This document shows, in pieces, positions 9,114 through 64,000 of a stretch of 64,000 bases of DNA. The notes under the pieces were generated by a model. That model ran no database searches. It was not told the DNA's origin and saw only the letters and a program-made list of their open reading frames with translations. Made by a program: the position numbers and the translations under genes. Positions within the stretch are counted from its first letter, which is position 1, and each line of letters begins with the position of its first letter. This DNA comes from Candidatus Haiyanarchaeum thermophilum (GTDB lineage Archaea > Nanobdellota > Nanobdellia > JAPDLS01 > Haiyanarchaeaceae), in assembly GCA_025920425.1 (NCBI GenBank), contig JAPDLS010000001.1:227449-291448 (forward strand), written 5' to 3'.

Positions 9114-10378
9114 GGATACTTACGAGTAGGTGTCCTAGGAAATGGGATTGCGTCTAATACGCTTTCAAGATCAAGGAGCCAAGTCAACAATCTCTCTATT
9201 CCCATCCCAAATCCTCCATGGGGAATGCTCCCATATCTCCTCAGATCCAAATACCACTCATACTCCTTAGGATTCATCCCGAATTCTCTAATCCTCTCAA
9301 TTAATTCCTCCTCGTCATCTATCCTTTCACTTCCTGAGCTAAGCTCTCCTATTCTTGGTACAAGGAGATCTACAGATTTCACCAGCTCCTTGTTGTTCTC
9401 ATAGGCCTTGCAATAAAATGCCCTAATCTTTCTTGGGTAGGCATATACAAACACAGGACCATCTTTGGCAAGAAATTTCTCCTCTTTAAAGCCTAAATCA
9501 TCTCCAAATTGGAGTTTGAATCCTCCCTCATTAAGTATCTTCAGAGCTTCATCATATGTCATCCTCCTAAAGGGCTTATTTAGCTTCTCCAGCTTCTCTA
9601 AATTTACCTTAAGTACCTCAAGCTCATCTTTACATTCCTCCAAAGTCCGCTTACATATTTCATATACCAGGTTTTCTTCCATTCTCATTATTTCATCAAT
9701 GGTAGCAAATGCCCACTCAGCTTCAGCATGCCAGTATTCTGTGAGGTGTCGGATCGTCCTAGATTTCTCAGCCCTAAAGCTTGGGGCAATGGTATAGATC
9801 TTGTCTATAGTAAAGATCAATGCTTCTGCATAGAGTTGCCAACTTTGGGTAAGGAATGCCTTATCATCGAAATATTTCACCTCAAAGAGAGTTGCTCCTC
9901 CCTCGCATGCTCCCGATACTATCATAGGAGGAGAAATCTCAATGAAACCATTTCTTTCAAAGAATTCCCGTATGAATTTCATTACTTTGCTCCTCACCCT
10001 GAAAATTGCACTCATTCTCCTACTCCTTATGGAGAGATGTCTTATATCTAGTAAGAAGGCCTTACTTACATCTCTACTTATCGGAAATCTCTCTGCTAAA
10101 TGAATTATCTCCAGATCATCCACTATCACCTCAAATCCTCCAGGAGCTCTCATGTCCTGATGAAGTATTCCCCTCGCCCTAATGCTGGATTCTATTGTAA
10201 CTCGCTCAGCTGTTTCAAATGCTTTACTCCCTCTCTTCACCACCAATTGAATTATTCCCTTTGCATCCCTAAGTACTATAAAGATCTTATCCTTAAATTC
10301 TCTCTTCCTATAAACCCAACCGAATAAGCTTACTTCAGCCCCCTCTCTCGCAGTTTTGAGTACATCACTAGTGTACAT
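9110..10378 (-). CDS. aspS: aspartyl-tRNA synthetase (class IIb, archaeal type; Asp/Asn assignment not fully resolved)
   Basis: 422 aa. N-terminal OB anticodon-binding domain, class II motif 2 FRAEKSRTIRHLTEYWHAEAE, motif 3 GGFGMGIERL. Confidence 0.8.
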   Translation of the reverse strand: MYTSDVLKTAREGAEVSLFGWVYRKREFKDKIFIVLRDAKGIIQLVVKRGSKAFETAERVTIESSIRARGILHQDMRAPGGFEVIVDDLEIIHLAERFPISRDVSKAFLLDIRHLSIRSRRMSAIFRVRSKVMKFIREFFERNGFIEISPPMIVSGACEGGATLFEVKYFDDKAFLTQSWQLYAEALIFTIDKIYTIAPSFRAEKSRTIRHLTEYWHAEAEWAFATIDEIMRMEENLVYEICKRTLEECKDELEVLKVNLEKLEKLNKPFRRMTYDEALKILNEGGFKLQFGDDLGFKEEKFLAKDGPVFVYAYPRKIRAFYCKAYENNKELVKSVDLLVPRIGELSSGSERIDDEEELIERIREFGMNPKEYEWYLDLRRYGSIPHGGFGMGIERLLTWLLDLESVLDAIPFPRTPTRKYP

Positions 10379-24236: not shown

Positions 24237-24396
24237 GCTCTTTATGCTTCAACCTCAACGCCTTTGAGCCGCATTTCCTACATTTTACTTTACCTCTCCT
24301 CACATCCTCTGGATCTGCCCTTAGCTTTGTCTTGCATCGTTTGCACACGTAGACATTCTTGAATAACCTGGCCTCAGCTTCCTTAAACTTGACCAC
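24226..24396 (-). CDS. rpl40e: 50S ribosomal protein L40e (manually found, not in ORF track)
   Basis: Reverse translation gives (M)VKFKEAEARLFKNVYVCKRCKTKLRADPEDVRRGKVKCRKCGSKALRLKHKELKR, the L40e Zn-ribbon family pattern (FxEAEARL...C.RC...C.KCG). Apparent GTG start at 24396; an in-frame TGA lies immediately upstream. Confidence 0.6.
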   Translation of the reverse strand: MVKFKEAEARLFKNVYVCKRCKTKLRADPEDVRRGKVKCRKCGSKALRLKHKELKR

Positions 24397-24558
24397 CCTT
24401 ACCCCTCCTCTTCAACTCTTCTCTTAGAAGGCCCACTTCCGCACTTAGAGCCTCGATACTCTTTTTCAATTTAACTATGTCTTCTTTAGCCTTCTTTATT
24501 TCTCTGCACTTGAAAAAGCACATAAAACAATTTAAAAATCCGAGAATTTATAATAATT

Positions 24559-24861
24559 ATGGAGAGAACTCTTACTTGGAAGGATATAGACACTGTAATA
24601 TTGAAGATCACGGGTAAATGGATCCTCGGGGTAATCGTTCAAGAAGATGCAAGTGGGAGAAAGAGACTAAAGTTATTCAAGGGAAGGATTAAAGATGATG
24701 GAAATAGGAAAGTAGAATATAAGGGGAAGGAAATAAAGTTCTCAATGATTCAGAGATTCAATATCCCCAGCGAAAAATATTGGATCAAGCTAAATAGGGA
24801 AATGTTAAAGGTAATTTCCAAATATCTGGGAAAGGAACAGAGGTATTTGCCTGAATTTTAA
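24559..24861 (+). CDS. hypothetical protein (100 aa)
   Basis: ORF only, basic. No motif recognised. Confidence 0.25.
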   Translation: MERTLTWKDIDTVILKITGKWILGVIVQEDASGRKRLKLFKGRIKDDGNRKVEYKGKEIKFSMIQRFNIPSEKYWIKLNREMLKVISKYLGKEQRYLPEF

Positions 24862-25391
24862 CATTTCTCCACTTCTTCATACTTAGAATAAATTCCTAAG
24901 AAGAGCTGTGCACTTCTATTGCATGGAAAATGCAACTTCATTGAAAAAATTGGGATCTTTTCCAAGCATACAGATCTCCTAGCACTATAGAATACTGCCT
25001 CCTTATCTCCTTGCATGTAGAGAATAAATTCGTAGCTTGGTTTATTAAGTTTTGAGATGATTTTACTTACGCTTCGATTTAGTATCGAATATTCCAGAAG
25101 CTGACAGACATATAGAGAAATTGCTTCAGCCAGTGTAAGATTGTTGAGTTCCGTTACTCTGCTCTTCAGCATGGTAAGGAGCAATCTTCCTGTATACTCA
25201 AGACCTACTCTCTCCCGAGCTACTGCTGAGATTTGAAGATTTAATTTTAATGTTAGAATGAGCAAGAGGGCACTCCCCACGAGGAAAAGGATGAGCAATT
25301 CCAACAGAGACACATTCCCCTTAGTAACAGAGGAGGGTAGGTTCATTTTTCTTCCTGTCCAAATATGGGAGACAAATTTCACCACTAGCAT
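24858..25391 (-). CDS. type IV pilin-like protein (class III signal peptide-like N-terminus)
   Basis: 177 aa. N-terminus ...SSVTKG|NVSLLELLILFLVGSALLLILTL has a positively charged stretch, Gly, then a ~20-aa hydrophobic helix. Last gene of the pilus-like operon. Confidence 0.35.
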   Translation of the reverse strand: MLVVKFVSHIWTGRKMNLPSSVTKGNVSLLELLILFLVGSALLLILTLKLNLQISAVARERVGLEYTGRLLLTMLKSRVTELNNLTLAEAISLYVCQLLEYSILNRSVSKIISKLNKPSYEFILYMQGDKEAVFYSARRSVCLEKIPIFSMKLHFPCNRSAQLFLGIYSKYEEVEKC

Positions 25392-25563
25392 TTAGATCAT
25401 CAACTTTTTCCTCAAATAGGCGAAAGGAAAGGTTTCTATTTCTCTCTACTAGATCCCAGCTCCTATCAAGCTCCCCTAGATGATAGGTAAAGAAAAAAGT
25501 TAAGCTTACTAGGAGCATAGTCACCATTATCAGTAAACTTATAAGGAAAATTATTTCATCCAT
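25321..25563 (-). CDS. small membrane protein with N-terminal TM helix (pilin-like operon member)
   Basis: 80 aa. MDEIIFLISLLIMVTMLLVSLTFFF. Overlaps neighbouring ORFs, so its status is uncertain. Confidence 0.25.
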   Translation of the reverse strand: MDEIIFLISLLIMVTMLLVSLTFFFTYHLGELDRSWDLVERNRNLSFRLFEEKVDDLNASGEICLPYLDRKKNEPTLLCY

Positions 25564-25915
25564 TTTTCAAGTAAACCCTATTCCCATCCCTCAGCAAGGT
25601 AAGTTTAGAATCCACCTCAATTCGGGTCCTCTCAACTTCTGTAATTACCACCATTTCACACTTATACCGATTTGATGAAAAATTGATGGAAGTTCCTTCA
25701 GCTACAATCTCTCCTCCTATCCCCCTCATGCTTAAACTCACATTTTCCCTCGAAAAGTTGAGAAAATTGATAATGGAACGGAGGGACCCACAGAAATATT
25801 TAACCTCAAGTAAATATAGGGCTTCACTCAGTGAAAGGAAGAGGGATGAAAATATGAGGATTATGAAGAATGTTGAAATAAGTGCTGAAATTTGACTTAG
25901 TGGTATTTGAATCAT
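25556..25915 (-). CDS. pilin-like/FlaF-FlaG-like protein with N-terminal TM helix
   Basis: 119 aa. N-terminal hydrophobic helix ISALISTFFIILIFSSLFL followed by a beta-rich domain. Confidence 0.3.
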   Translation of the reverse strand: MIQIPLSQISALISTFFIILIFSSLFLSLSEALYLLEVKYFCGSLRSIINFLNFSRENVSLSMRGIGGEIVAEGTSINFSSNRYKCEMVVITEVERTRIEVDSKLTLLRDGNRVYLKNG

Positions 25916-26304
25916 CTGAAGATGATCGTAAGCTTATCCTTTTCTTCCCACTCTTTCATTCCAAATACCAATACTACTTCATTTCTCCCTTCGCCAATCG
26001 TCACGTTATAGAGTATATCTCCGGGAAATTTGATCTCTAAATGGTTTTCCTCCTCAAATACCTCTAGCACATCCTTCTCTGCATTTGCTAAGATCGATGA
26101 ACCTCTAGGCAAAAAGATCTCAAATCTATCGAAACTCCCTTCACTCATGCTCCTAAGCATTGATGCTCTCTCAACTATCCTCTGAGTATAGATCACTGCT
26201 AAGCTTTTCTCCATCCTGATCCACCTCTCAATCTGAAAAGAGAAAATTTGTAGTATGAAAATACTGCTGAGTATCCCTATCGCAAGATAGCTCCACTCCT
26301 CCAT
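25912..26304 (-). CDS. pilin-like/FlaF-FlaG-like protein with N-terminal TM helix
   Basis: 130 aa. N-terminal TM YLAIGILSSIFILQIFSF followed by a soluble domain. Confidence 0.3.
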   Translation of the reverse strand: MEEWSYLAIGILSSIFILQIFSFQIERWIRMEKSLAVIYTQRIVERASMLRSMSEGSFDRFEIFLPRGSSILANAEKDVLEVFEEENHLEIKFPGDILYNVTIGEGRNEVVLVFGMKEWEEKDKLTIIFR

Positions 26305-26502
26305 TTACTTAGTCAAGTTGGATGTCAAGTTTCTCACGTACTCTCCGATGGTAGAGGTAGCATTCCTTATATCACTTCCCAAACTAGTGTAAGTGGAGAC
26401 AATAAGTGCTATAATCAACGCCATCGCTATCATTAGTACCATATACTTCAATGGCATTCCCTCAATTCCCCTCTTATTCATATCATCACCCCAAAAAACC
26501 AT
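26305..26502 (-). CDS. short pilin-like protein (possible class III signal peptide)
   Basis: 65 aa. NKRG|IEGMPLKYMVLMIAMALIIALIV with a short mature domain, size typical of minor or major archaeal pilins. Confidence 0.3.
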   Translation of the reverse strand: MVFWGDDMNKRGIEGMPLKYMVLMIAMALIIALIVSTYTSLGSDIRNATSTIGEYVRNLTSNLTK

Positions 26503-28232
26503 TTAGTAACTATCCATGAGCCTAGGAGTATGAATATGGTAAGTGGTAGGCTCTTATAGATTGCCTCGGAGAATCTTACTTTATCTTCACCAAACTCGAG
26601 GGCAGTGCTTAATTTGAGGAGGAGATAGGAAAGACATAGGAGATACATTCCAATTACTAAGTAAAGGACCTCCGGATGAAGTGAAGCCTCAAGGAGAAAG
26701 AAGTTAAATCCAAGTTCCAATCGAGTTTTTTGGGCTAAGAAAATGAGCATCTCATTAATTCCTATTACCAATCCACAGATAATTGGGGCTAGAAAGACTG
26801 AGGTGATCCTCATCATCCCAATAACTTGTCTCAGCATATCTCTCACTTCCATCTCCAATTTCTTCAACTCTCCATAATATTGGGTAATTGTTAATAACAT
26901 GTTGGTCAACATTTCAGAATTTTTCCAATTTTGCTTCAAGATTCCAAGGCAAACTCTAACCTTACTCGAAAGAATTCTTCTTTCGTCCCCCAGCTTTTTA
27001 GAAAAAACTTCACTCAAACTTAAGCCTAACCTCTTAGCTAATTTCATCTTTCTCCTCATCACCTTAGAGATCTCTGTATGCTTAAAGGAAGTGTAATAAA
27101 AACTCAATGCTTCTTCAACACTCCTTCCTCCTTCAACCCTCATTGCTAGCTGATAGTTAAAATCTAGGATCTCCTCCTCCATCCTCTCATTCTTCCTTAC
27201 AACCCCAATTAGATCCTTAACTTTCAGATAATGGTAAAGAGAAAAAGCAATGCTCAACCCCATCGGAATGAGCATACACAAGTAAAGCCCTCTTCCTGAG
27301 GAGAGGAGGTTGATGAGGGAGAGTATGCCTGGAAATGCTATCACAAACCAAACTAGTAGGCAGAAGTAAAGCTTCCTCTCCTCCATCTCCCTAGGAATTG
27401 GGAGAGAAGAAAAGGAAATGAGGGGCCTCTTCTCTAGTAGCTTAGAGGAGATCGCCCATACGATGAGTAGAAGAATAAAAGGTGAGATCAATAGAAAGAA
27501 TTGTGCTCCTTTACTCATGAAAAAGGCGGAAAAGGGAGTAAATGAAATTAGGAGAAATGGAATTGTGCTGCTCAGCGAAAATATAATTAGGACTGGAAAA
27601 TAAATCGATTTGGAAAATTTCTTAAATTCACTTAGGATGGAATCGAGGGTCAGCTTGAAACCTCTATCTAGGAGGTAACTCCTCTCTTCCTTTTTACCAT
27701 AGGAGAGGGATGAGATCACGTAATAGATGCTTGTCCTTATCACAGTCCCCTTGGAATCTGACCACCTAATCAATTCCTCTTTTAGATTTCCGCTTAGGCT
27801 AGCTCTTCTCAAAATCTCTTCCAACTCCCTCTTCAACTTACCCCGCAAACCATGAATTGAACGTAAAATGGCTACTTCCAAATTCGGATTTATTTTTAAG
27901 TAACTCATGATCTGAGCCAAAGCCTCAATATACTGCGCCATGTAATGCATCTTCTTCACCCTAGCTTTTGACTTAGGATATTCTAGAAAAGCATAGTATG
28001 CCAGAAATGGTAGAAGTAATAGAAGAGGCATGAACCACTTAATTAGGAGAAATGAGGAAATGAGGAATGAGAGGATGAGGATTGCTCTGGCAGCATTTAC
28101 TACATCTTCCCCACCTACTCTCCATTCCAGAAAGCTAAGCGCTTCCTCCAATTCGTGGTCCCTAGCCTTCCCACGTAGAGGAAATCTCTTAGAGAACTTA
28201 CATACTATTTCATAAAAAGTTGGAGCCTGCAT
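26478..28232 (-). CDS. TadC/FlaJ-like polytopic membrane platform protein (GspF/T2SSF-like, internally duplicated)
   Basis: 584 aa. Two repeats of a cytoplasmic helical domain followed by TM helix bundles. First gene of an operon with five downstream pilin-like genes. Confidence 0.5.
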   Translation of the reverse strand: MQAPTFYEIVCKFSKRFPLRGKARDHELEEALSFLEWRVGGEDVVNAARAILILSFLISSFLLIKWFMPLLLLLPFLAYYAFLEYPKSKARVKKMHYMAQYIEALAQIMSYLKINPNLEVAILRSIHGLRGKLKRELEEILRRASLSGNLKEELIRWSDSKGTVIRTSIYYVISSLSYGKKEERSYLLDRGFKLTLDSILSEFKKFSKSIYFPVLIIFSLSSTIPFLLISFTPFSAFFMSKGAQFFLLISPFILLLIVWAISSKLLEKRPLISFSSLPIPREMEERKLYFCLLVWFVIAFPGILSLINLLSSGRGLYLCMLIPMGLSIAFSLYHYLKVKDLIGVVRKNERMEEEILDFNYQLAMRVEGGRSVEEALSFYYTSFKHTEISKVMRRKMKLAKRLGLSLSEVFSKKLGDERRILSSKVRVCLGILKQNWKNSEMLTNMLLTITQYYGELKKLEMEVRDMLRQVIGMMRITSVFLAPIICGLVIGINEMLIFLAQKTRLELGFNFFLLEASLHPEVLYLVIGMYLLCLSYLLLKLSTALEFGEDKVRFSEAIYKSLPLTIFILLGSWIVTKWFFGVMI

Positions 28233-28329
28233 AAGTGGTGAAGATAAAGCTGTTTATTTAAGCAGAATTCTATCTTTCCCGTAACCATTTTGAGAAAAAA
28301 TTTTTTATTGTAAAAGCCTTCTAAAGCTT

Positions 28330-28402
28330 GGGCCCGTGGTCTAGGGGTTATGACGTCGCCTTGACGCGGCGAAGGTCCTGGGTTCAAGTCCCAGCGGGCC
28401 CA
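28330..28402 (+). tRNA. tRNA-Val (anticodon GAC)
   Basis: GGGCCCG acceptor paired with CGGGCCC plus A. Anticodon loop UUGACGC. T-arm CTGGGTTCAAGTCCCAG. Confidence 0.8.
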
Positions 28403-28467
28403 AAAATTCCTCAAGCGATCACAACCATAAGCTGGAGATCTAATTCGAAGGGTTAAATTTAAAAACT

Positions 28468-29097
28468 ATGTCCTCCCCTCTCTTTGCTATGCCAGAATTT
28501 CCATCTTATTTAAGAATTATTTTTCAATACAAATCCATTATACTCTTTATAGCATTTCTCATCATTTCTTTTCACATCATCTCCAACCCAATGATTGAGA
28601 AGGCAGTAATAGGATTTTGCGAGAGGTTTTCCTACTTCACTGCCTTCATAGCAGGACTACTTTATGCCTCGTTCGTTACTATTCCTCTCTCTATCGTGTT
28701 AATTTATGATGTAGCCCGCTTCCTTCATCCAGTTATGATAGGAATAATTGGGGGTGTGGGCTCAATGTTAGCAGATGTCTTGGTCTTTCAGTTCTTCAAG
28801 CTCTCAATAATCCCTGAGATCAAATTACTGGCCACTACCCTGAAAGAAAGGAGTGGGAGAGCGAGGAGACTGTTTGAGTATGTGAAACTCTCTGAAAGTA
28901 TGAGGAAAAATGCCCTCTGGATTCAAAAATTTGCTCCATTGATAGCAGCATTTATCATTTCCTCCCCCCTCCCCGATGAATTGGCCATTTTCTTTCTAGC
29001 TGCTGTAGAATACGATATGAGGAAACTCATGGTACTTACCTTCGTTCTCAATTCAATTGGAATCGTCTCCATAGCGTCCATAAGTCTCCTCTTATAA
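28468..29097 (+). CDS. small polytopic membrane protein (DedA/VTT-like topology, unassigned)
   Basis: 209 aa with ~5 hydrophobic helices. Sits directly upstream of the Mo-oxidoreductase gene. Confidence 0.35.
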   Translation: MSSPLFAMPEFPSYLRIIFQYKSIILFIAFLIISFHIISNPMIEKAVIGFCERFSYFTAFIAGLLYASFVTIPLSIVLIYDVARFLHPVMIGIIGGVGSMLADVLVFQFFKLSIIPEIKLLATTLKERSGRARRLFEYVKLSESMRKNALWIQKFAPLIAAFIISSPLPDELAIFFLAAVEYDMRKLMVLTFVLNSIGIVSIASISLLL

Positions 29098-31096: not shown

Positions 31097-32392
31097 ATGT
31101 ATGGGAGAAGTATGAAGCCTAGCGATATTATTAGATATTATAAGAAGGCAGAGGTGAAGGAAAAGATAATAAAGGTAGCTAAGGATAGAGAGGTTGTACC
31201 TCTTCTCCTCACAGGGGAATTTGGGACAAGACCTCAAGCGATATTGTTTGAGAGGGATTATGATGAGTTAATAAAGGAAGGGGTAGCTAGTCTTCACATG
31301 AGCATTGAGAGATGGAGAAATCCTATGCTCCTGAAGAGCGAAATGAAAAGATCTGAACTTGATGAGCTCAGAATAGGCTGGGATCTCATAATAGATATCG
31401 ATGCAAAGGCCTTTGAGTTCTCAAAGCTTTGTGCTCCTTTAGTCATTGAAGCCCTAGAGCTTCATGGGGTGAAGGACATATTTGTGAAGTTCTCTGGAAG
31501 AAATGGATTTCACATCGCAGTCCCATTTGAGACATTCCCACACAGAGTAGGAGAAAAACTTGTGGATCGAATGTTTCCTGAAGCTGCTAGGATAATTGTC
31601 GCCTACCTTAAACAGATGATCGAAAAGCATCTGGCTGAGGAACTCCAGACAAATTTCTCCCTCGAGGAATTGTGTAGGCTTTCCAATTTAAAAATGGAAG
31701 AACTAATAGATGAAGAACTTGGGATAAATCCTTATAAATTAGTGGATATAGATCCAGTAGCTATCTCCTCTAGGCACTTAGTGAGATGCCCATATTCCCT
31801 TCATGAAAAGACTTGGTTGATCAGTATACCTATAGACAAACGTAAAATTCTAAGCTTCTCTAAGGAAGAGGCCAAACCATTCCAAGTTTCATTTGAAGGG
31901 GACTTCTTAAGTAGGGAGGATTATGAATTATACAGCGCTAGGGAGCTGTTCCTCCAAGCCTTCGATTGGGCTGCAAGGCATGAAGTGGAGGAGAGAGTCT
32001 CTAGGCAGATTGGGGAAAGATTCGAGTTACCAAAACAGGCAATTCCTGAACAATTTTTCCCTCCATGTATAAAAAGTATCTTGAGAGGTGTGAGCGACGG
32101 AAGGAAGAGGTCTATATTTATCCTCATCAACTTCCTGCGCCTTATGGGTTATGATTGGAATTCTGTGGAGAAGATAATTTGGGAGTGGAATAAGAGAAAT
32201 GTGGAGCCCCTGCGGGATTCCTATATAAACTCTCAACTCAACTGGCATAAGAAGTTGAGGGAAGTGTATACTCCTCCGAATTGTGATCACGAGAACTATT
32301 ATCGTAACATGGGAGTATGTGCTCCTGATGAACTTTGTAAAAAAATAAAAAACCCGCTTACCTATGCATTAAGGAGATACAGAAAGGGTTAA
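31097..32392 (+). CDS. priS: DNA primase, PriS catalytic domain fused to a PriL-CTD-like 4Fe-4S domain
   Basis: 431 aa. AEP motifs GWDLIIDIDAKAFEF (DxD) and FSGRNGFHIAVPF. C-terminal ~120 aa has the FFPPCIKSILRG (p58C-like PPCM) motif plus three further Cys (NCDHE...GVCAPDELC), giving a 4-Cys cluster. Confidence 0.7.
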   Translation: MYGRSMKPSDIIRYYKKAEVKEKIIKVAKDREVVPLLLTGEFGTRPQAILFERDYDELIKEGVASLHMSIERWRNPMLLKSEMKRSELDELRIGWDLIIDIDAKAFEFSKLCAPLVIEALELHGVKDIFVKFSGRNGFHIAVPFETFPHRVGEKLVDRMFPEAARIIVAYLKQMIEKHLAEELQTNFSLEELCRLSNLKMEELIDEELGINPYKLVDIDPVAISSRHLVRCPYSLHEKTWLISIPIDKRKILSFSKEEAKPFQVSFEGDFLSREDYELYSARELFLQAFDWAARHEVEERVSRQIGERFELPKQAIPEQFFPPCIKSILRGVSDGRKRSIFILINFLRLMGYDWNSVEKIIWEWNKRNVEPLRDSYINSQLNWHKKLREVYTPPNCDHENYYRNMGVCAPDELCKKIKNPLTYALRRYRKG

Positions 32393-36423: not shown

Positions 36424-37320
36424 TTAAGCTGCACCTATAGCTGTAAATGTAATGGTAGGTATATTGATTACGTATCCATATTTTACACTTAGTAGTATTT
36501 CATCTCTGAAAGCAGTAGGTTGTGTGAGCTTTTCAGGCCTTACATTTATAGTGAGGTAAACATCTAACCTGTTAGCTTCTAATTTCAATAGGCTTGGATC
36601 TGTCACTTGAAGCACGTAGAAATTATCTTGTAGTGTGGCATTAACTTCTTTCATCTTTATCTTAGCCGAAAATCCTGTGATCAACTCTTTGCTTATCTTG
36701 ATCACTAATTCAGTAAGAGTTGAATCGGGAGTCACACTTACATTTGAGGAACTTACAAAGCCATTCAGCTCATTTTTAATGGTGAGTGTAGGTTTAAATG
36801 AGGTAGTGGTGATGACATCCTTTATTCCACTCATCGTAATGGTAAGTGGACCATCTTCTACATAGGATCTAGGAGTAATTCCAGTTGCGTACTCGCTTTT
36901 GTTGGCTAATACAAACTCATAGCTAGCCTCTTGCAGATAATTGAACTTAAGCTTTCCAACGATTGAATAACTCTTGTTTTCCCTGGCAGAAGATAAGAGT
37001 GAAAACTGGGCGGTAATAGTAGTAGTATCCCCAGCTGGGATAGTCCCAATTTGCAAATATGGATCTTGAATTGATACTGTCACGTCTGGTGAGCTTATAT
37101 AGGCTTCTACATCATCTATGTTTTTAGGATATCCATTCTTTATCTCTAAGCTATATTCTGCTGTCTCACCTATAATTATGCTACTAGGCGCACTTGGTCT
37201 TACTGTTACTTTTAGTGTTACCGGAGGCTGGATTGTGGGAGGCCACCAACCCTGCTGAATGCATCCTAGAGAAAGTAGGAGTAGTGTTAGACTCGCAAAC
37301 AAGAGGATCTCTTTTTTCAT
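36424..37320 (-). CDS. putative lipoprotein, paralogue family A (gene 5 of surface operon)
   Basis: 298 aa. Signal plus LLLSLGC|I. IGETAEYSLEIKNGYPKNIDDVEAYISSPDVTVS and IKNELNG shared with gene 4. Confidence 0.4.
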   Translation of the reverse strand: MKKEILLFASLTLLLLSLGCIQQGWWPPTIQPPVTLKVTVRPSAPSSIIIGETAEYSLEIKNGYPKNIDDVEAYISSPDVTVSIQDPYLQIGTIPAGDTTTITAQFSLLSSARENKSYSIVGKLKFNYLQEASYEFVLANKSEYATGITPRSYVEDGPLTITMSGIKDVITTTSFKPTLTIKNELNGFVSSSNVSVTPDSTLTELVIKISKELITGFSAKIKMKEVNATLQDNFYVLQVTDPSLLKLEANRLDVYLTINVRPEKLTQPTAFRDEILLSVKYGYVINIPTITFTAIGAA

Positions 37321-37367
37321 TTTCCGCTCTTTAATTCGTAGAAGCTTTGGCTTTTTAAAATTTATCC

Positions 37368-38255
37368 TCAGTAAGAGGTAAATGTGAATGCAGGAGCTTC
37401 AACACAGTAAGTATAATTTAATCCAAAGTAAACTGGAAAACTAATGAAATTTACACTCTTCAACATCTCTAGAATCTCTTCCCTTAAGGAGATGTATGCT
37501 CTAATTTCCTTACTTTCCTTCAATTGTAATAATAACCTATCACTCTCATTCTGATAACTTAATCTCACTCTTATATTTCCATCTATTACTTTCCCATACC
37601 TCTGGAAGGCATACAGGCTTGCAATTATATCATCTCTAGGTACCCTTATTTCAATCTCTTTTATTATAGAGTCACAAGGTTGACCCACTTCTTTAGAAGT
37701 AATCTCTCCGCTCAGTTCATTCTTCAATTTAATTGTGAAATTTATCTCATGGACAGGCGAAAATACATTTTCAATACCAATAAAGCTTACTGAAATTATT
37801 TCCTTATCTAAGCTAGAATGTGGCTTCGTGTTTACCATGCTGGGATCCGAGGCGATAATGATCTCATGATATCCTTCTACTTCTCTGTCTACGCATATCT
37901 TCCCATAGATCTTGTACTCCATGTTTGGATATGCTTTCGTATTCAAAGCACAGTTTACGTAACCTTCATTACTTGTACCAGAAATTAGGTCTCCCAGATC
38001 GATCCTCTGCTGGAGTAAGCTCACAGATATATCTGGACTGTAGAGGAATGCCCTCACGTTTTTCAAAGTTGCGGAGAAATTGTTAGTCACCTGTACTCTA
38101 AGCTCAAAGGTCTCCCCTCTTTTTACCCTCTTAGGCCCGTACATATAAACGCTAATTCCCCCATATATTGCTCCTCCACTTGGAGGGGATGGGGTAATTT
38201 GAATGCATCCCAATAGAATAAGAAGTATCAACAAAGATCCAAGCTCCTTCATCAT
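37368..38255 (-). CDS. putative lipoprotein, paralogue family A (gene 4 of surface operon)
   Basis: 295 aa. Signal plus LILLGC|I. Motif RGETFELRVQVTNNFSATLKNVRAFLYSPDISVS and KNELSGE align with gene 5. Confidence 0.4.
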   Translation of the reverse strand: MMKELGSLLILLILLGCIQITPSPPSGGAIYGGISVYMYGPKRVKRGETFELRVQVTNNFSATLKNVRAFLYSPDISVSLLQQRIDLGDLISGTSNEGYVNCALNTKAYPNMEYKIYGKICVDREVEGYHEIIIASDPSMVNTKPHSSLDKEIISVSFIGIENVFSPVHEINFTIKLKNELSGEITSKEVGQPCDSIIKEIEIRVPRDDIIASLYAFQRYGKVIDGNIRVRLSYQNESDRLLLQLKESKEIRAYISLREEILEMLKSVNFISFPVYFGLNYTYCVEAPAFTFTSY

Positions 38256-39202
38256 ATTTTAATAGGCACTACTGTAATCATAAAATTTCCATTTTTTATG
38301 AAGGTATAGTTCAACTCTATTCGAAAATCTAAATTGATAAATGGGCGTAGATCTGGTGGAAGATTGAGTGGAAGGTAAAATTCTGGAGAGGTAGCTAACT
38401 CTATTGCGCTTATGTTCCTACTAAATCCCTCTGAAACCTTTATCCAATTTTCGATTTCCGATGGCATATACTCTTGAGAAGGATAGAATACTGTAATCGA
38501 TAAGTCCCCTTCCACAGTTCCCCTAGCCTCTGGGATCACTGAAAGTGAGAATATCAAATAAGATTCCCTACTTTGGTTGGTAGAAAAAACTACATAGTTA
38601 TCTGGAGTCTTTCCTTCGAATTTGATGGGACTTGGGGTAGAGTAGATTATTGAATTCGAAACCCTGCTGCCTCTTATGAGTTCCTCCTCATTGATTGCAG
38701 TTATCCTATAAATGAACTTTGCCACGTAGTTATACTTCACTGTATAATACATCTGATGGTCATAAACCATTTTCCCTATCTCCTCCTTACTTGGAACTTT
38801 CAATATCCAAAAGAAATCTATTATTTCTCCGGGCATGATACCTTCCATACAATGCGTCCTCACTTCTTTACCATCATCACAAGTATATCCGTAAGGACTA
38901 CCTTTTCTCCTCTCAGATGGATTACTATACTCCTTCCCTCCCTCTACTATTCGGAAAGGTTCTACATTTTCTAGGCTTACTATGACACTCGTAGCATTTC
39001 CTCCCAGTGCATTGTTCATTATCGTAATTACTACAAAAGTATTTGTGTCTGGAGCTACCCTACTTATTTTAGAACCAGCGAACAATACTTTGATGTCCTC
39101 ATAACTCTGTGGGATTTCCTCCTTAGCAATACAACCTAAACTAAGGAGTAATATGAGTAAATAGAAAAAAATGCTGAAGTGATTGCGGATTCTTCTCCTC
39201 AT
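38252..39202 (-). CDS. putative lipoprotein, paralogue family A (gene 3 of surface operon)
   Basis: 316 aa. Signal peptide plus lipobox-like LLLSLGC|I, beta-rich CARDB/DUF11-like strands (TFVVITIMNNALGGNATSVIVSLENVEPF). Confidence 0.4.
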   Translation of the reverse strand: MRRRIRNHFSIFFYLLILLLSLGCIAKEEIPQSYEDIKVLFAGSKISRVAPDTNTFVVITIMNNALGGNATSVIVSLENVEPFRIVEGGKEYSNPSERRKGSPYGYTCDDGKEVRTHCMEGIMPGEIIDFFWILKVPSKEEIGKMVYDHQMYYTVKYNYVAKFIYRITAINEEELIRGSRVSNSIIYSTPSPIKFEGKTPDNYVVFSTNQSRESYLIFSLSVIPEARGTVEGDLSITVFYPSQEYMPSEIENWIKVSEGFSRNISAIELATSPEFYLPLNLPPDLRPFINLDFRIELNYTFIKNGNFMITVVPIKI

Positions 39203-41745
39203 ATTACACTACAGGATACTGTAGTTTCCCCATAGGTTAAATAGGTGTAGGTGGCTACTGCATATATCAGAAAGCTTTTGAAGACTCTGCTTTCGAGCAG
39301 AGTTTTATTCACTTTAATAGGACAAGTGTATAATTTGAACTCTTTGGGACTTTGAGTGAGTATGTGTAGGTTGTAATTATATAAACTGGTCAAGTTGCTC
39401 AAAATTGAATTCAATTCACCACCAAACTGCCTACAATATGTGCCTGGCGAAATTTTTAGGCTAGTAGTCGCACATTGATACTCTCTCTCCCCCTTTCTGA
39501 AAGAGAATCTCACAGTAATTGGACTTCCTGCCTTGAGGAAGGTTTTGGGCGAAGAGAAATTAACACTTTTTATCTCAATCTTTTCTCTACTTAAGTTTGA
39601 TACTTCCAGCCTATCTAAAGTTTTGCTCTCATTGTAGTTTAAGCTCTGAGATAAAACATCAATCCTCACGTATAACAAAGTGGTCGAATTCCCATTTGTC
39701 CAAGGTTTGAAGAACAAATATCCATCCTCGTGGAATGAAATGTCAAGAAATGAAATGTCTCCTCCTCCGCACGAGTTGATATCTTCTCTCACTTCCTTCT
39801 CCTTACAGTTACCGACCACTTCATCTAGTGTTACTGCACTAAAATCTCCCTCTGGTAAACAATTACCCAATTCTCTGGGAAGTAGTAGATAATAACTAGT
39901 GGGAGTTACCTCTCCACTAGCTATATCTGCCCTCCCACTAGAGACGAAGATATACATCGTCCTATTTTCCTCACTTAAATCTATCGGTTGGGGTTCAGTA
40001 TTTATGTTGAGTTTGATTGGGCCAAGGGTAACAATGGCTGGAACTTCAGATTTAGTGAGGAAACCTAAGTCTTGTAAGCTCCAAGAGTAATTTTGTTCTA
40101 TGAAAGTAATCGGCAACCTAGAAAAGGAGTAGAGGTCCATCTTTACTCCAATTCTCAACACACAGCTCAACGAACTTATTTCAGTATTTTTGGGTTTTAT
40201 ATTCGTAACACAACTGTATTGATAACCTTGCTTCGGTCTGAGTACAAGTGTTTTATTACACTCAGGGAAGACTTCAAGTTCCTCTAAACAAGTCCAATGA
40301 GTAAGAGCAAATGCTGTTAACCAATCAGCCATCCACTGGCTATAAGGATTTATTAAAGATGCTTGGATCTGAATTGGGTAGTTGGCTATGTTCTCTATCT
40401 TAGCTATTACAGAAAAGTTCTTTCCACAGTAGGTAGCTCCGTAGCTCTTGAATTCAGAGATCCTAACCCCAGAAGTAGGCATGAGTTCAGGAGTGGAACC
40501 TTTACACTCTATTCCATATACATCACACCATAAGGTTTCATATTGGGCTTGTACCTGCTCCAAATATTTTCTATAATCCAAGGTTTTATAGAGATCTGCT
40601 AAGCTCCAAGAAAGGCTCCAAGTCCAGCCAATTTTCCAACCGATCACTGGAAGGATAGGTTGAATTTGTATGTTGATTATAGGAAGGATGGCTGGAAAAA
40701 TCCAGAAAATTAGAATGAAAGTTGGAACTAGTGAGAGGAAAAAACTTACCCAGCCTTTTGGTATTATTGCCCCAAAAATGGAATAGAAGATGAAAGTGAA
40801 GATCATTCCTCCAAGCACACCGAATAGTGGATAACCAATCCCATAGCCTGTAGCAAATGGTCCTCCCACCTGAGGAGCTGGAGCGCTCATAGCTCCTATC
40901 GCGATACTGCCGGTGAGTATAAGAAAGGTAAAAAGAAGTATTGAGAGATAGAGCAACGCAGGAACCGCCCCTCCAGTTTTTTTAGGTAATCCATATTTCA
41001 GATCAGAAATTCCTAGATACACATACAATATCGAAACTATGAGAATTAAGAGTATAAATGGAATAATTACCATGAGACTAAATCCCCCAGCACTATACAA
41101 AAAGTAACCTCCTATTCCTACTAGTGCAAAGCCTATAATGAGGAAAAAAATTTTGAATCTCTCATATACTGTAGAAATTTCCTCTCTGCTTCTTTCCAAC
41201 CAACCTCTTACTCGCTTAATTCCCCACTTCTTTCGCCTTCCCAATAATTTTTCATATTCTACTCTCCCCGCTAGCGATGGAAAGATCAAGATGTAAATGC
41301 CAAGAATAATAAGGAATATATAGGAAGTATATGCTCTTGCTGCAGCCATCCAGGGATACAAGTAAGTCATTGAGACAAAGGCAACGAAGCTAGCGATGAT
41401 AATCCTAGATAATACATTCCCTATTGACCATTTCCTCTCATATTCTTTCCTCAACTCATGATCTCCACCACTAGCTCTCCTAGCTATATCTTTTCCCCTT
41501 AGGATTGCTAATGGTAAGAAGATGAGGGAGAAGAATACTATGAACGGAATTACTAATTCAAAATAGTTAATAGGTATACCTCCCCAAGCAGCATAAAAGG
41601 AGAGGATAAAAATAATAGGATAATAAATCCAGTCTGGTACTTCTTTTGTTATGTCCTCCCTCCTCTTCTCCTTCATCTCCTTCAGGAGTTCCTTGTAATA
41701 TTCCTCTACTGAGGGAGGATAAGGTGGAGGAGGTGGAGATTGCAT
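39199..41745 (-). CDS. large polytopic membrane protein with ~430-aa cysteine-rich extracellular C-terminal domain (gene 2 of surface operon)
   Basis: 848 aa. Pro-rich cytoplasmic start (MQSPPPPPYPP), ~10 predicted TM helices over residues ~40-420, then a soluble domain with >15 Cys and >10 N-glycosylation sequons. Confidence 0.45.
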   Translation of the reverse strand: MQSPPPPPYPPSVEEYYKELLKEMKEKRREDITKEVPDWIYYPIIFILSFYAAWGGIPINYFELVIPFIVFFSLIFLPLAILRGKDIARRASGGDHELRKEYERKWSIGNVLSRIIIASFVAFVSMTYLYPWMAAARAYTSYIFLIILGIYILIFPSLAGRVEYEKLLGRRKKWGIKRVRGWLERSREEISTVYERFKIFFLIIGFALVGIGGYFLYSAGGFSLMVIIPFILLILIVSILYVYLGISDLKYGLPKKTGGAVPALLYLSILLFTFLILTGSIAIGAMSAPAPQVGGPFATGYGIGYPLFGVLGGMIFTFIFYSIFGAIIPKGWVSFFLSLVPTFILIFWIFPAILPIINIQIQPILPVIGWKIGWTWSLSWSLADLYKTLDYRKYLEQVQAQYETLWCDVYGIECKGSTPELMPTSGVRISEFKSYGATYCGKNFSVIAKIENIANYPIQIQASLINPYSQWMADWLTAFALTHWTCLEELEVFPECNKTLVLRPKQGYQYSCVTNIKPKNTEISSLSCVLRIGVKMDLYSFSRLPITFIEQNYSWSLQDLGFLTKSEVPAIVTLGPIKLNINTEPQPIDLSEENRTMYIFVSSGRADIASGEVTPTSYYLLLPRELGNCLPEGDFSAVTLDEVVGNCKEKEVREDINSCGGGDISFLDISFHEDGYLFFKPWTNGNSTTLLYVRIDVLSQSLNYNESKTLDRLEVSNLSREKIEIKSVNFSSPKTFLKAGSPITVRFSFRKGEREYQCATTSLKISPGTYCRQFGGELNSILSNLTSLYNYNLHILTQSPKEFKLYTCPIKVNKTLLESRVFKSFLIYAVATYTYLTYGETTVSCSVI

Positions 41746-41747
41746 TT

Positions 41748-42902
41748 TTACTCAATCAAGATCTTCAAATCTGAAATTCTAAATTTGCCTGATGGGGCAT
41801 ACAGCCTCAACGTATTCCTCCCCACTACTAAATCCTCCTTCCCAAATTCTATAGTAATTAAGTCTAGTGTCCTGCCTGAGGCTACGTAAATGTGCTTATT
41901 GGTCTCAAGGAGGTGAATCCAAAGAGTACCTGGAATCTCCACATCAGTTATTCTCATTAATAACTTCACTTTCTTTTGGATGAGCTCAGTCTTATTTAGA
42001 GAAAAAGTAAAGCTCTCTTCCCTCTTCATCTCTCTCCCAAAAAGAGTAACAAGTGTTACTGCTCTAACATGAATTTCGGAATTATCTCCTGCTGAAAGCT
42101 TGAGGATATGCCTTCCTTCTCCCAATCCTATTTCACTCAAATAGATGCTGAAATTATACTGCGTATATGGAGTCACTTTTTCCACACTCATGATCTTCTT
42201 CTCATCTATGAATAAACTAAAAGCTCCTGTTGCCTCTCCAGTATGTACAAATATTTTGAGTATTTCGGCCTCATCTCCTCTGCTTAAATAAAAACTTAAG
42301 CTCTTCTCTGGATTATATGTAAATTCTTGGGTTCTCATGATCTCCACTTCATAACTGCAGCTCTGATAGAGGGCTAAACCCTGAAAGATACAATACACAT
42401 ACAGCTCATTTGTAGCTTGGATTGGCTCAAATTTGTAGTAAAACTCCTCTCCGACCTCCATTGACTTTTCTAAGATGTTCTGGTTGTTTAGTACAAGTTT
42501 GACGGTTGGAGTTGAATCCTTCCCAATTAACTTTATCTTGATATGAATTTCCCTCGTATTTTCATCTATTTGAGTTATGGAGTATTTTTTGTATGGAGAA
42601 CCAAAGATAGCAGAAAGAATATTCGATGAGAGGCTCAATTTTTCCTGAAGCAGGGTCTCATTCCTAGTAGTCCTACTCAAAACAAAGCCCTCTGGAAAGG
42701 TTTTTCTCCACTTTTCTTCCCCATCAGCTCCACCTATTACCAGCTCCTCTGCCAAGCTAATTATTTTCCCCTTAGGGGCTGTGGTTGGTGTGGTAAGGTT
42801 TAGGTACTCCCTCTTCACCGATGGGGAGACTGCAATGAGGAAGAAAAGGATGATCCCTAGCATTACTAAGATAATTATGGGGACTGCAAGCTGAGACCTC
42901 AT
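41748..42902 (-). CDS. N-terminally anchored or secreted envelope protein (gene 1 of 5-gene surface operon)
   Basis: 384 aa. N-terminal hydrophobic segment AVPIIILVMLGIILFFLIAV, then a beta-rich domain with many NxS/T sequons. No recognisable catalytic motif. Confidence 0.4.
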   Translation of the reverse strand: MRSQLAVPIIILVMLGIILFFLIAVSPSVKREYLNLTTPTTAPKGKIISLAEELVIGGADGEEKWRKTFPEGFVLSRTTRNETLLQEKLSLSSNILSAIFGSPYKKYSITQIDENTREIHIKIKLIGKDSTPTVKLVLNNQNILEKSMEVGEEFYYKFEPIQATNELYVYCIFQGLALYQSCSYEVEIMRTQEFTYNPEKSLSFYLSRGDEAEILKIFVHTGEATGAFSLFIDEKKIMSVEKVTPYTQYNFSIYLSEIGLGEGRHILKLSAGDNSEIHVRAVTLVTLFGREMKREESFTFSLNKTELIQKKVKLLMRITDVEIPGTLWIHLLETNKHIYVASGRTLDLITIEFGKEDLVVGRNTLRLYAPSGKFRISDLKILIE

Positions 42903-45206: not shown

Positions 45207-46028
45207 TTCAGCTTGGGAGAATGCTGGCTTCGGGAGCCAGTGGTCCTGGGTTCGAATCCCAGCGACCCCACTCCCCACCTTTAGGAATTCATAGATAAAG
45301 ATTCTGAATCTAGGAATGGCCTTCCACTTTCTCTTGAAGCAAATTACCCCAGAATCACAACCCCAACCTATGTCTAACCACTTATACTTGTTTTGTTTAG
45401 CATAAATTATCTCTGCGTACATAAGGAAATCGGCCACATATTTATATGGAAGATAGAAGCCATATGGAACTATCATTACTGTATCTGTAAAATCCACCAA
45501 ATCGAAGCCGATTAACCTATTACCTCTATAAGCGTTGAAGAGGAGTGGAGATGGAAATTTCTTCAAATATTCTGAGATCCTCATAAAGCACCATTTATCC
45601 CAATCCTCGAATTTTATCCTCTCCATACAATTTGCAATTATATAGGAATGGGCGCAGGTGAAATCTTTGCTTATTACTAATTTAAATTTCTCTTTTGCCT
45701 TTTCCACAACATATCTCAACCCCTTATACTCCCTCCCCCTAAATTTTTCATCGAATCCATCAAGGGGAATTTGGTAATCTTCCTCCTCTACACTCCTCTT
45801 TAAGAGATAACCAAAGCACTCGAGCTCTACATTTAGTGGGGATGTGGAGGAGATATAAAGCATTCTTGGGGAGAATGTGAGAATAACCTCTCTTATACAA
45901 TCTTTCCAATCTTCCTTGAGATGAATCAAATCTACCCATATTCTCCCAGTAGCTTGATCGCGATAGATAATATAATTCTCTTTATAGCTTAAGGTTTCAC
46001 CCATGAGGATAGAACCTAATGCAATCAA
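45183..46028 (-). CDS. hypothetical protein (possible GNAT/FemAB-like fold); 3' end reads antisense through tRNA-Pro
   Basis: 281 aa ORF. C-terminal ~25 codons are the reverse complement of the tRNA-Pro(CGG) gene. Weak resemblance to acyltransferase C-termini (LDIGWGCDSGVICFKRKWKAIP). Confidence 0.3.
   Translation of the reverse strand: MIALGSILMGETLSYKENYIIYRDQATGRIWVDLIHLKEDWKDCIREVILTFSPRMLYISSTSPLNVELECFGYLLKRSVEEEDYQIPLDGFDEKFRGREYKGLRYVVEKAKEKFKLVISKDFTCAHSYIIANCMERIKFEDWDKWCFMRISEYLKKFPSPLLFNAYRGNRLIGFDLVDFTDTVMIVPYGFYLPYKYVADFLMYAEIIYAKQNKYKWLDIGWGCDSGVICFKRKWKAIPRFRIFIYEFLKVGSGVAGIRTQDHWLPKPAFSQAELRPLKVK
45198..45271 (+). tRNA. tRNA-Pro (anticodon CGG)
   Basis: GGGGTCG/CGACCCC acceptor plus A. 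Anticodon loop UUCGGGA. T-arm CTGGGTTCGAATCCCAG. Overlaps the last 9 nt of hel308. Confidence 0.8.
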
Positions 46029-58950: not shown

Positions 58951-59433
58951 TCGCTTAGCCTTCTTATCGCAGAATATCTTGAGTTTCATTTTCTCTTGCA
59001 CATCCTTATCCCTTATTTCATGAACTTGCACTCTATTCTCGTCGAAGATGTGAATTACCTGATAGCCTAATTTGACCAATGCCTCTGCAATATATCGGCG
59101 ATGACATCTAAACCACAAAAGCTCGCTGCATAGAATCGCAGGAGTCTTGGCCTCCATCATTTTTATCAGCTCTCTTAAAGCCTCTTCAAATTCCCTACTC
59201 TTGCTAAAGGTCTCGTAACCTTCCTTTCTAAATCCCCCAAGCTTCGAAAAATGAATATACTCTATTTCATTCTCCTCCAAGCTCTTCTTGAGTTCTTCCT
59301 TATTGAAGTGAGGAAATTTCTTGCTGGTGGGAAATCTGCGAACATCTATTACTAGGTTTATTCCGTAATGTTTTAGGAGATGTAGAAAAGTTGCGAGATC
59401 TCTAGTGCTATGGCCTAAAGTATAAACTCTCAT
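58930..59433 (-). CDS. DUF488-family protein
   Basis: 167 aa. MRVYTLGHS...LVIDVRRFPTS matches the DUF488 N-terminal signature. Confidence 0.55.
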   Translation of the reverse strand: MRVYTLGHSTRDLATFLHLLKHYGINLVIDVRRFPTSKKFPHFNKEELKKSLEENEIEYIHFSKLGGFRKEGYETFSKSREFEEALRELIKMMEAKTPAILCSELLWFRCHRRYIAEALVKLGYQVIHIFDENRVQVHEIRDKDVQEKMKLKIFCDKKAKRLTEEGK

Positions 59434-60941: not shown

Positions 60942-61065
60942 TTTCCTAACCTGCTTGCCACTGAAAGCTTTAATATTTTGAGCATATCTCTTTTAACTGA
61001 AAAATTTTTTCCTTCCAGCTCTTTCAAGGTATGGAATAGAGATTCCTATCATCTTCTTTCCTAAC

Positions 61066-61284
61066 TTAGTAGCTTTTATATGCATTTCCTTTCCCATCGT
61101 TCTTCTGTCTAATTACCCTAACTCCCAACCTCTTACAAATATATGGAGTTGCATCCCTCGATTTATCTACCACAACTATCTCATATTTTCTCCCCAGCTT
61201 TCTTATCTTCTCTATAACTCTCTCTATATTTTCCTCTTCGTTTTCGGTAGGAATTATGATAGAAGCCTCATACATTTCACACAA
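61066..61284 (-). pseudogene. N-terminal remnant of a GT2 glycosyltransferase (dolichyl-phosphate sugar synthase-like)
   Basis: 72 aa. SIIIPTENEEENI...EIVVVDKSRDAT...NDGKGNAY is the first ~70 aa of a GT2 Rossmann domain, then a stop. Only ~125 nt remain before the next gene, so a full GT2 (>200 aa) cannot be encoded. Confidence 0.45.
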
Positions 61285-63963: not shown

Positions 63964-64000
63964 GAAAAATTAAAAAGCGTTGAGTGGTGAAATCTAAGAA

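Follow-up and report, generated by a model that had tools for sequence, protein, structure and literature searches.

We describe here a cluster of six minus-strand genes, located at positions 24858-28232 of a 64,000-nucleotide stretch of the Candidatus Haiyanarchaeum thermophilum genome (contig JAPDLS010000001.1; this whole stretch is hereafter called the window), which encodes a 584-aa polytopic membrane protein followed by five small proteins with an N-terminal helix, named p58, p130, p119, p80 and p162. The locus belongs to the known type IV filament superfamily, and we consider it probable that it represents the platform-and-subunit half of a split, DPANN-specific, pilus-like filament system with its motor gene at another locus. 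In the literature searched, we found no description of a conserved platform-plus-pilin module devoid of ATPase, of the leader motif carried by its small proteins or of genetically leaderless subunits. A preliminary description of the window had pointed out the six-gene cluster, the internal duplication and GspF/TadC/FlaJ-like nature of the 584-aa protein, the lack of any ATPase or peptidase gene in the 64 kb and the proximity of a site-2 protease and of TFE, all of which hold in the analyses reported below.

The six open reading frames (ORFs) were verified on the minus strand and overlap or abut one another (junctions of -4, 0, -4, -8 and -26 nt), so that they very probably form a single operon. 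The 584-aa protein gene (26478..28232; NCBI locus tag OH339_00745) is followed by the genes for p58 (26305..26481), p130 (25912..26304), p119 (25556..25915), p80 (25321..25563) and p162 (24858..25346). For two of them, the start codon lies inside the longest ORF. The 65-aa ORF extending to 26502 most likely starts at Met8, yielding a product of 58 aa, as a Shine-Dalgarno-like GGGGTGAT sequence is found just 5' of this codon and both the NCBI and the Logan gene calls agree with it. Similarly, the 177-aa ORF extending to 25391 most likely starts at Met16, as in the NCBI call, yielding a 162-aa product that begins with MNLPSSVTKG/NVSLLELLILFLVG (here and below, a slash marks the predicted cleavage site).

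All six genes are real and under purifying selection. In the orthologous locus L003 (related loci are designated by such numbers), the platform protein is 76-77% identical to that of the window and all five small ORFs are retained in the same order. The dN/dS ratios computed against L003 are 0.04 for p58, 0.08 for p130, 0.25 for p119, 0.19 for p80 and 0.15 for p162, compared to 0.07 for the platform gene and 0.06 for the neighbouring site-2 protease gene; a pseudogene status of the small ORFs, which we also considered, was rejected on the basis of these values. In addition, an N-terminal hydrophobic helix is found with the same criterion in 20% of the other window ORFs, which gives a probability of about 3.5e-4 for five consecutive occurrences.

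Platform protein and pilin-like families

The 584-aa protein is an internally duplicated platform protein of the T2SSF superfamily (GspF/PilC/TadC/FlaJ), an assignment that is secure at the family level. It matches the Pfam T2SSF model (PF00482) in two stretches (23.1 bits, E=7.8e-5, for a cutoff of 25.2 bits), and this model is matched by 36 of the 62 sampled family members, with a best E-value of 1.1e-15. Five of these 62 proteins match SpoIIIAB, which reportedly has a GspF-like fold. The platform-family profile also matches the GspF cytoplasmic domain as solved by crystallography (2vma/3c1q, E=0.0099); GspF is reached by family profiles only, a sequence-only search of the PDB with the single 584-aa sequence having returned no match. 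The protein contains about nine hydrophobic or transmembrane (TM) segments, whose bundles alternate with two soluble helical domains (residues ~85-208 and ~340-468). When compared profile against profile, its two halves align with each other (hhalign E=1.9e-4) and the PNLE.A motif (E119) pairs with the G.P.E.A motif (E373). An AF2 model (pTM 0.71) is all-helical, with the two soluble domains as its most confident parts, and its top PDB match in Foldseek is the PilC chain of the type IVa pilus machine model 3jc8, with a weak E-value of 0.073. An exhaustive HMMER search for the family yielded 1293 representative clusters, of which 534 had an E-value below 1e-30. Together with locus scans, this search recovered the clade nearest to the window protein, which a word-indexed homolog search had missed entirely.

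Iterative profile searches (jackhmmer) over all fetched loci revealed three conserved families encoded beside the platform gene, represented in the window by p58, p130 and p162. These families have in common a class III-like N-terminus, in which a short basic leader and a Gly precede a hydrophobic helix, of the form [KR][KR]G/[VI]-E-x-x-P. The p58 protein reads MNKRG/IEGMPLKY (MNKRG/IEGMPLKYMVLMIAMAL), followed by the hydrophobic helix and by a short tail with three N-x-S/T sequons, and no other gene of the operon is as well conserved (p58 is 91% identical in L003). Almost every related locus, even where an ATPase gene is adjacent, has a member of the p58 family next to the platform gene. These proteins share the N-terminus [KR][KR][GA]-[VI]-E-[GA]-x-P-[LF]-[KR]-Y, again followed by a hydrophobic helix. 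They range from mini-proteins of 54-67 aa, found in many lineages, to forms of 160-180 aa carrying an Ig-like domain, such as the Woesearchaeota homologs, in which this head matches Big_7 (3 members, best E=4.2e-5).

The p130 family comprises 21 members according to jackhmmer, most of which begin with ..KKG-V-E-[SA]-F-P-F and continue with the helix. The top PDB match of its profile is the type IV pilin PilE1 (8pfb, E=0.0015), over the hydrophobic and amphipathic halves of helix alpha-1, a marginal match that is nonetheless independent of the other evidence and to which composition bias may contribute; the PAK pilin matches the same profile at E=1.4, and the p162 profile matches PilE1 at E=1.3. 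The p162 family was found beside the platform gene in 11 other loci. It has an N-terminus of the form ..[KR][GA]-[QN]-G-x-x-I-D-L-x-L-L (alignment A7), with an acidic residue at position +6, and four conserved Cys columns, among which the C-terminal Cys162 is invariant and Cys81 nearly so.

The remaining two proteins are specific to the lineage of the window. The p119 protein (MIQIPLSQ-ISALIS..., KD17 hydrophobicity of 2.54, three sequons) was detected in the window, L003 and L005 only, and its first residues align by eye with the VEGLPLKY motif of the p58 family. The p80 protein opens directly with its hydrophobic helix (MDEIIFLISLLIMV..., KD17 hydrophobicity of 2.92); its only orthologs are in L003 and L005, other jackhmmer matches being probably driven by the TM segment. 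A basic leader followed by Gly or Ala and by a helix of about 20 residues is thus present in p58 and p162, and absent from p130, p119 and p80. The preliminary description had credited two of the five proteins with a prepilin-like leader, which is right for p58 and p162, but p130 is not a mere membrane anchor, as its relatives make clear.

Indeed, Met1 of p130 (MEEWSY-LAIGIL...) aligns with the +1 Val or Ile that follows KKG in leader-bearing homologs (alignment A5), and an in-frame TAA immediately precedes its ATG. Thus, p130 is a genetically leaderless member of a normally leader-bearing family. Independent cases occur in the same family in L030 (1991-2380; MEEMPFK) and in L035/L047 (129-554 and 5254-5670, both on the minus strand; METTPFY, with the variant MMETTVFY), which brings the number of lineages concerned to three, including the window. 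In the p58 family, the L038 member (2037-2219) opens with MEGLPFKY, and some leaders consist of MKG only. As the ORFs of these other leaderless loci are the longest possible, they contain no hidden leader, and the fact that leaderless variants begin exactly at the predicted +1 position is indirect evidence for a cleavage site after the Gly. These variants also show that evolution has repeatedly yielded subunits that mimic a processed N-terminus, Met-Glu replacing Val/Ile-Glu; methionine aminopeptidase is expected to retain a Met that precedes Glu. Both p80 (MDEIIF) and p119 (MIQIPLSQ, to be compared with VEGLPLKY) may be further examples of such leaderless proteins.

Sequons of the N-x-S/T type are about 6-fold denser in the five small proteins (2.37 per 100 aa) than in the rest of the window (0.37). 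The window also contains glycosylation genes (59430-62323, minus strand), encoding a 503-aa PMT_2/GT22-like protein and a 348-aa GT4 protein (AglH-like), with a GT2 fragment between them in the public annotation. The sequon density and the presence of these genes fit the idea that the small proteins are surface glycoproteins, and the four conserved Cys columns of the p162 family likewise speak for surface exposure.

The ATPase-less arrangement and competing explanations

Neither a T2SSE ATPase nor an A24 prepilin peptidase was found in the window by Pfam scans and precomputed Pfam tables, which covered essentially all ORFs. Likewise, a T2SSE hidden Markov model run over all window ORFs of at least 40 aa detected no ATPase, and a tblastn search of the raw window DNA with six ATPases gave a best E-value of 0.15. 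Extending the search to ~10 kb past each end of the window (~84 kb in all) again revealed neither a T2SSE ATPase nor an A24 peptidase. The usual position of the ATPase gene is taken here by a tRNA-Val gene and a divergent membrane-protein gene. We considered the 209-aa product of the latter (28468-29097) as a candidate for the missing peptidase and rejected it, since it has no Pfam match and no GxGD motif detectable by eye; it was not seen at the corresponding position in other lineages. Finally, a presenilin-type signal-peptide peptidase (SPP; PF06550), i.e. an intramembrane aspartyl protease of the GxGD family, is encoded ~3 kb past window position 64000 (L050 12677-13462). Its role as an alternative to the missing A24 prepilin peptidase is speculative.

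The preliminary description was right about the local absence of an ATPase gene, but this absence is not peculiar to the genome studied here and characterizes a whole paralogous clade of DPANN platforms. To compare clades, we computed a BLAST score matrix and, for 40 platform proteins from 42 related loci, a neighbour-joining tree. The clade of the window comprises, besides the window itself, L003, L005, L024, L006-L009, L025-L032 and L048, with no ATPase nearby, and the only part of the larger window clade with an ATPase is the L040 sub-branch, where it lies directly upstream of the platform gene. Eight loci (the window, L008, L009, L029, L031, L032, L033 and L048) show more than 9 kb of flanking sequence on both sides without any ATPase; as L009/L033 and L029/L048 are near-identical pairs, they amount to six independent ATPase-less loci. 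In other clades, the ATPase gene is located either directly upstream of the platform gene (Nanopusillus, L018, L020, L022, L023 and L044) or ~405-411 nt downstream (L035, L036, L041 and L042). For example, the 669-aa platform gene of Nanopusillus acidilobi overlaps the gene of a 747-aa T2SSE ATPase (Pfam E=2.6e-23), which belongs to a large DPANN family of about 740-770 aa. The 690-770-aa ATPase family is common in DPANN lineages (4584 matches at E<=1e-20 among scored candidates). In Woesearchaeota, a 763-aa ATPase gene is followed by the gene of a 716-724-aa platform paralog and then by a run of small ORFs. Across the deeply diverged DPANN lineages that share the gene set, platform proteins are 26-40% identical. 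As the ATPase-less arrangement is common to the whole clade in the tree and in the matrix, the absence of ATPase is a conserved property of a paralogous platform clade, instead of an assembly accident or a recent loss.

A separate observation concerns a metagenome-assembled genome (MAG) of Nanopusillaceae type, in which a second, canonical locus (L022 1-3247), made of a 509-aa T2SSE ATPase gene and two split T2SSF genes, lies ~5 kb from a DPANN-type ATPase-platform pair. Some relatives therefore have two motors.

Two lines of evidence connect the ATPase-less loci to a motor. First, the p58 and p130 families are also present in L034, L041 and L042 (from the L034-L036/L041/L042 clade) and in L040. 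A T2SSE ATPase gene is adjacent in L040, L041 and L042 (the L034 contig stops before the expected ATPase position), which ties these families to a true secretion-ATPase machine. Secondly, five residues of the cytoplasmic domains (N117, L118, E119, A121 and E373) vary little or not at all among the 62 representatives of the whole platform family. This argues that platforms without a neighbouring ATPase gene have kept the ability to dock a cytoplasmic partner of the same kind. The preliminary description had left the choice between an apparatus split across the genome and a non-canonical partner; the comparative evidence favours the split.

Under this model, the small proteins would insert in the membrane with their N-terminus in the cytoplasm and their C-terminus outside. 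A prepilin-type peptidase encoded elsewhere would cut p58 and p162 after the Gly; p130, and probably also p80 and p119, would require no cutting because their genes start at position +1 with Met-Glu or Met-Asp. The cytoplasmic domains of the platform would dock a hexameric secretion ATPase provided by another locus, probably the DPANN FlaI-like ATPase of 690-770 aa, which might also serve a second platform paralog, an ATPase-linked one. As ATP drives movements of the platform, the subunits would be lifted from the membrane into a thin N-glycosylated fibre. In this fibre, p58 would be the major subunit, because it is the most conserved and the smallest of the small proteins and its gene directly follows that of the platform; the other small proteins would be minor or tip subunits. 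The most plausible function of such a fibre would be attachment to a host or to a surface, in a host-dependent DPANN archaeon.

Several observations weigh against the split-system model. No T2SSE ATPase or A24 peptidase was demonstrated in this MAG by the searches described above, and the presence of an ATPase-less locus and an ATPase locus in the same genome was not demonstrated in any genome examined. Two large ATPase searches, the first with the Nanopusillus ATPase and the other with a profile built on ATPases of the nearest clades that have an adjacent ATPase gene, returned no match from this MAG, nor from the contigs of other ATPase-less loci, among the best 120 of thousands, a result that is uninformative. 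Two ATPase matches of intermediate identity (P0194 and P0191) were considered as the motor of this genome and discarded, both being from other MAGs. The limited cross-complementation of ATPases and platforms between Haloferax loci counters easy motor sharing (bioRxiv 10.64898/2026.04.22.720090). As for the small proteins, the single-sequence AF2 model of p162 is of low confidence (pLDDT 52) and consists of a 54-residue N-terminal helix, short helices and three beta-strands. Curated pilin and archaellin models (TIGR02537, PF07790, PF04021 and PF01917) gave no significant match with window proteins, the best score among the small ones being that of the 65-aa ORF with TIGR02537 (E=0.15), and 38 family members gave a single, weak match to Arch_flagellin (PF01917, 1.3e-4) and nothing else relevant. 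Moreover, a FlaFind-style regular expression, [KRDE][GA][ALIFQMVED][ILMVTAS]x3 (an approximation of the actual program), matched none of the five window proteins, and 0 of 39 p58, 0 of 21 p130 and 4 of 11 p162 family members. The conserved Glu at position +2 is incompatible with the pattern; thus, the FlaFind-type test that the preliminary description had proposed as a possible refutation would probably give a false negative.

The small proteins might alternatively form a short membrane-embedded pseudopilus, or a bindosome- or stator-like scaffold displaying adhesive domains, with or without an ATPase and with no long fibre. Consistent with this, the leader is missing in three of the five small proteins, one family member has a weak match to the stator protein ArlF (E=0.028), Woesearchaeota p58 homologs bear their Ig-like head, and archaeal filament machineries that display binding proteins have been described (bioRxiv 10.64898/2026.04.22.720090). 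However, the 54-67-aa forms of p58 have no head domain and resemble bare filament subunits, and the same families adjoin a true secretion ATPase in neighbouring clades, so that we regard a display scaffold as unlikely.

We consider it quite improbable that the clade uses no T2SSE motor at all, its subunits being assembled spontaneously or with a non-canonical partner and its leaders being trimmed by another protease such as the presenilin-type SPP. We know of no type IV filament system that functions without its ATPase, and SPP cleaves within TM helices, not at the cytoplasmic boundary. The near invariance of the cytoplasmic T2SSF motifs throughout the family and the frequency of the 690-770-aa ATPase family in DPANN lineages also speak against this possibility. 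It draws its credit from the conservation of the ATPase-less arrangement throughout the clade, from the SPP gene just beyond the window, from the leaderless variants, which show that the processing requirement is relaxed, and from the lack of a prepilin peptidase in two nanoarchaea (PMC4858521). Finally, the idea that genome reduction removed the ATPase and left a pilus or archaellum operon decaying or without function is very hard to believe: although DPANN genomes are reduced and both ATPase and peptidase are absent over ~84 kb, none of the six genes is disrupted and all evolve under strong purifying selection (dN/dS 0.04-0.25), the gene set is kept across deeply diverged DPANN lineages, and no archaellin, ArlF or ArlG signature is present.

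Returning to the split-system model, a broader version of it would be that a widespread DPANN clade possesses a dedicated platform, co-transcribed with pilins and permanently separated from the ATPase, which relies on a motor in trans, and that leaderless Met-Glu subunits bypass the peptidase. We put this forward tentatively, giving it clearly less than an even chance.

DPANN archaea live attached to hosts by means that are largely unknown, and pili are the usual suspects. Surveys that require a co-localised ATPase-platform pair and a peptidase would miss the conserved ATPase-less module, and as its pilins evade curated models, the annotation of surface proteins is probably incomplete in many DPANN genomes. 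The three protein families, together with the leader [KR][KR]G/[VI]-E-x-x-P, can serve as a concrete search signature. The leaderless variants raise the question of whether a type IV pilin must pass through a prepilin peptidase; if these subunits are truly peptidase-independent, they would be the first natural case for type IV pilin-like proteins and would help to explain nanoarchaea that seem to lack the peptidase. In addition, a motor shared in trans by two platform paralogs would bear on the specificity of ATPase-platform pairing.

Neighbouring genes and other features of the window

Downstream of the operon, a gene on the minus strand (24383..24523) encodes cc46, a soluble coiled-coil protein of 46 aa. 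Within the ATPase-less clade, ten further loci combine the cluster with a cc46 homolog, if the ATPase-adjacent L040 is counted: the homolog is encoded downstream of the pilins in L003, L005, L006, L007, L008, L029, L031, L032 and L048, and farther off in L040. The protein is possibly a cytoplasmic accessory or regulator. In the window, cc46 is separated from p162 by the gene of a 100-aa soluble protein (24559-24861, plus strand), which has no Pfam match and is kept only in L003 and L005.

At the other end of the operon, an intergenic region (28233..28328, from our reading of the sequence) extends from the platform gene to a tRNA-Val gene (28329-28403, plus strand), which is directly upstream of the platform gene and divergent from it. 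A TTAAATAA element located 22-29 nt 5' of the platform ATG (window 28254-28261) may be the TATA box of a leaderless transcript. ORFs that resemble translated tRNA genes are found at the same spot in L008 (~9730-9885) and L009 (~9791-9949), so that the tRNA-platform adjacency may be conserved.

The site-2 protease (Peptidase_M50 and PDZ) and TFE genes, both confirmed by Pfam, adjoin the cluster. A functional link between them and the cluster was considered and dismissed, as the adjacency is limited to close relatives (L003 and L005) and does not extend to Woesearchaeota-type loci. The window also carries genes for reverse gyrase, a fused PriS/PriL primase, TFE, Gins51, a Hel308-type helicase and FtsZ. 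The organism is accordingly a thermophilic archaeon, and its genome is presumably small, as is usual for DPANN. The primase is encoded by a single 431-aa ORF (31097-32392, plus strand) with matches to two Pfam models, PriS and PriL, a fusion known from Nanoarchaeota.

Other surface-related genes are found at a distance from the operon. A second surface or membrane cluster (36424-42902, minus strand), with no Pfam match, includes the genes of a 384-aa protein whose N-terminus forms a TM helix and of three paralogs of ~300 aa with lipobox-like N-termini (..LSLGC/I). It also encodes a polytopic membrane protein of 848 aa, in which a large domain occupies the C-terminus and the N-terminus is Pro-rich. 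About 6 kb past window position 64000, an adhesin-like surface protein of more than 1564 aa (L050 16014 to beyond 20429) contains Laminin_G_3, DUF2341 and VWA domains. Lastly, the C-terminal end of a 281-aa ORF with no Pfam match (45183-46028, minus strand) overlaps a tRNA-Pro(CGG) gene (45197-45271, plus strand). As the last residues of this ORF resemble a translated tRNA, its true end is doubtful.

Comparison with known type IV filament systems

The preliminary description had called the locus pilus- or archaellum-like. The pilus part is supported by the pilin-like N-terminal architecture and by the genomic association, but the archaellum part is not, as no archaellin, ArlF, ArlG, ArlH or ArlI signature was found. 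As in the archaellum, a FlaJ-like platform is associated with small proteins bearing an N-terminal TM segment, comparable to ArlF and ArlG. An archaellum was nevertheless rejected: the window contains no archaellin, ArlH or ArlI, and only one of the 38 family members matches ArlF (E=0.028) and one, weakly, PF01917.

The bacterial Tad/Flp system offers a parallel in some respects. Its platform is of the TadB/TadC type, and JGI labels homologs of the window platform 'Flp pilus assembly protein TadB'; its mature major subunit has ~50 aa, as the trimmed p58 would, and in both cases a Tyr is conserved close to where the hydrophobic helix begins. The Flp prepilin signature is G/xxxxEY, and the components of the Tad system include TadA, TadV, RcpA and TadZ. 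Unlike this signature, p58 reads G/IEGMPLKY, with Lys-Tyr at positions +7/+8 instead of Glu-Tyr at +5/+6, and unlike the Tad system, the locus has no TadA, TadV, RcpA or TadZ and encodes its platform in one fused gene.

Similarly, the Epd pili of Methanococcus maripaludis resemble what we propose here in having a very short major pilin and N-glycosylation. In the Epd system, the ATPase and the platform are encoded together and the major pilin apart; here, the platform is encoded with the pilins and the ATPase apart. Epd pilin models gave no sequence match among the small proteins or their family members. The Epd system is also like the proposed one in that its structural genes lie at a different locus from other components. 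Standalone pilins are mentioned in a recent study (bioRxiv 10.64898/2026.04.22.720090).

Nps_02245 of Nanopusillus acidilobi (669 aa) and the Woesearchaeota paralog, both retrieved by the HMM profile, belong to the same protein family as the window platform (22-24% identity) and share its PNLE and G.P.E motifs. Unlike the clade of the window, these platforms form a separate paralogous clade, whose gene overlaps or abuts the ATPase gene. No member of the p58, p130 or p162 families was detected beside platforms of the Nanopusillus/Woesearchaeota type, except for two weak p162 matches in L018.

More generally, DPANN genomes are known to hold divergent type IV pilus islands, in which uncharacterised proteins with signal peptides were predicted to be pilins (PMC6393860, Fig. 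2A). One clade of nanoarchaeal secretion ATPases has no identifiable cognate pilins, and two nanoarchaea have no recognisable prepilin peptidase (PMC4858521). In the 2026 MacSyFinder models for archaeal type IV filaments, the ATPase, the platform and the peptidase are all mandatory (bioRxiv 10.64898/2026.04.22.720090). Unlike the catalogued archaeal loci, which are defined by an adjacent ATPase-platform pair, the platform clade described here is almost never found beside an ATPase, and its leader, G/[VI]-E-x-x-P, departs from the usual class III pattern. Like the catalogued archaeal filament loci and DPANN pilus loci (PMC4858521, PMC6393860), the cluster nonetheless consists of a TadC/FlaJ-type platform followed by small, fast-evolving, class III-like proteins that standard models miss.

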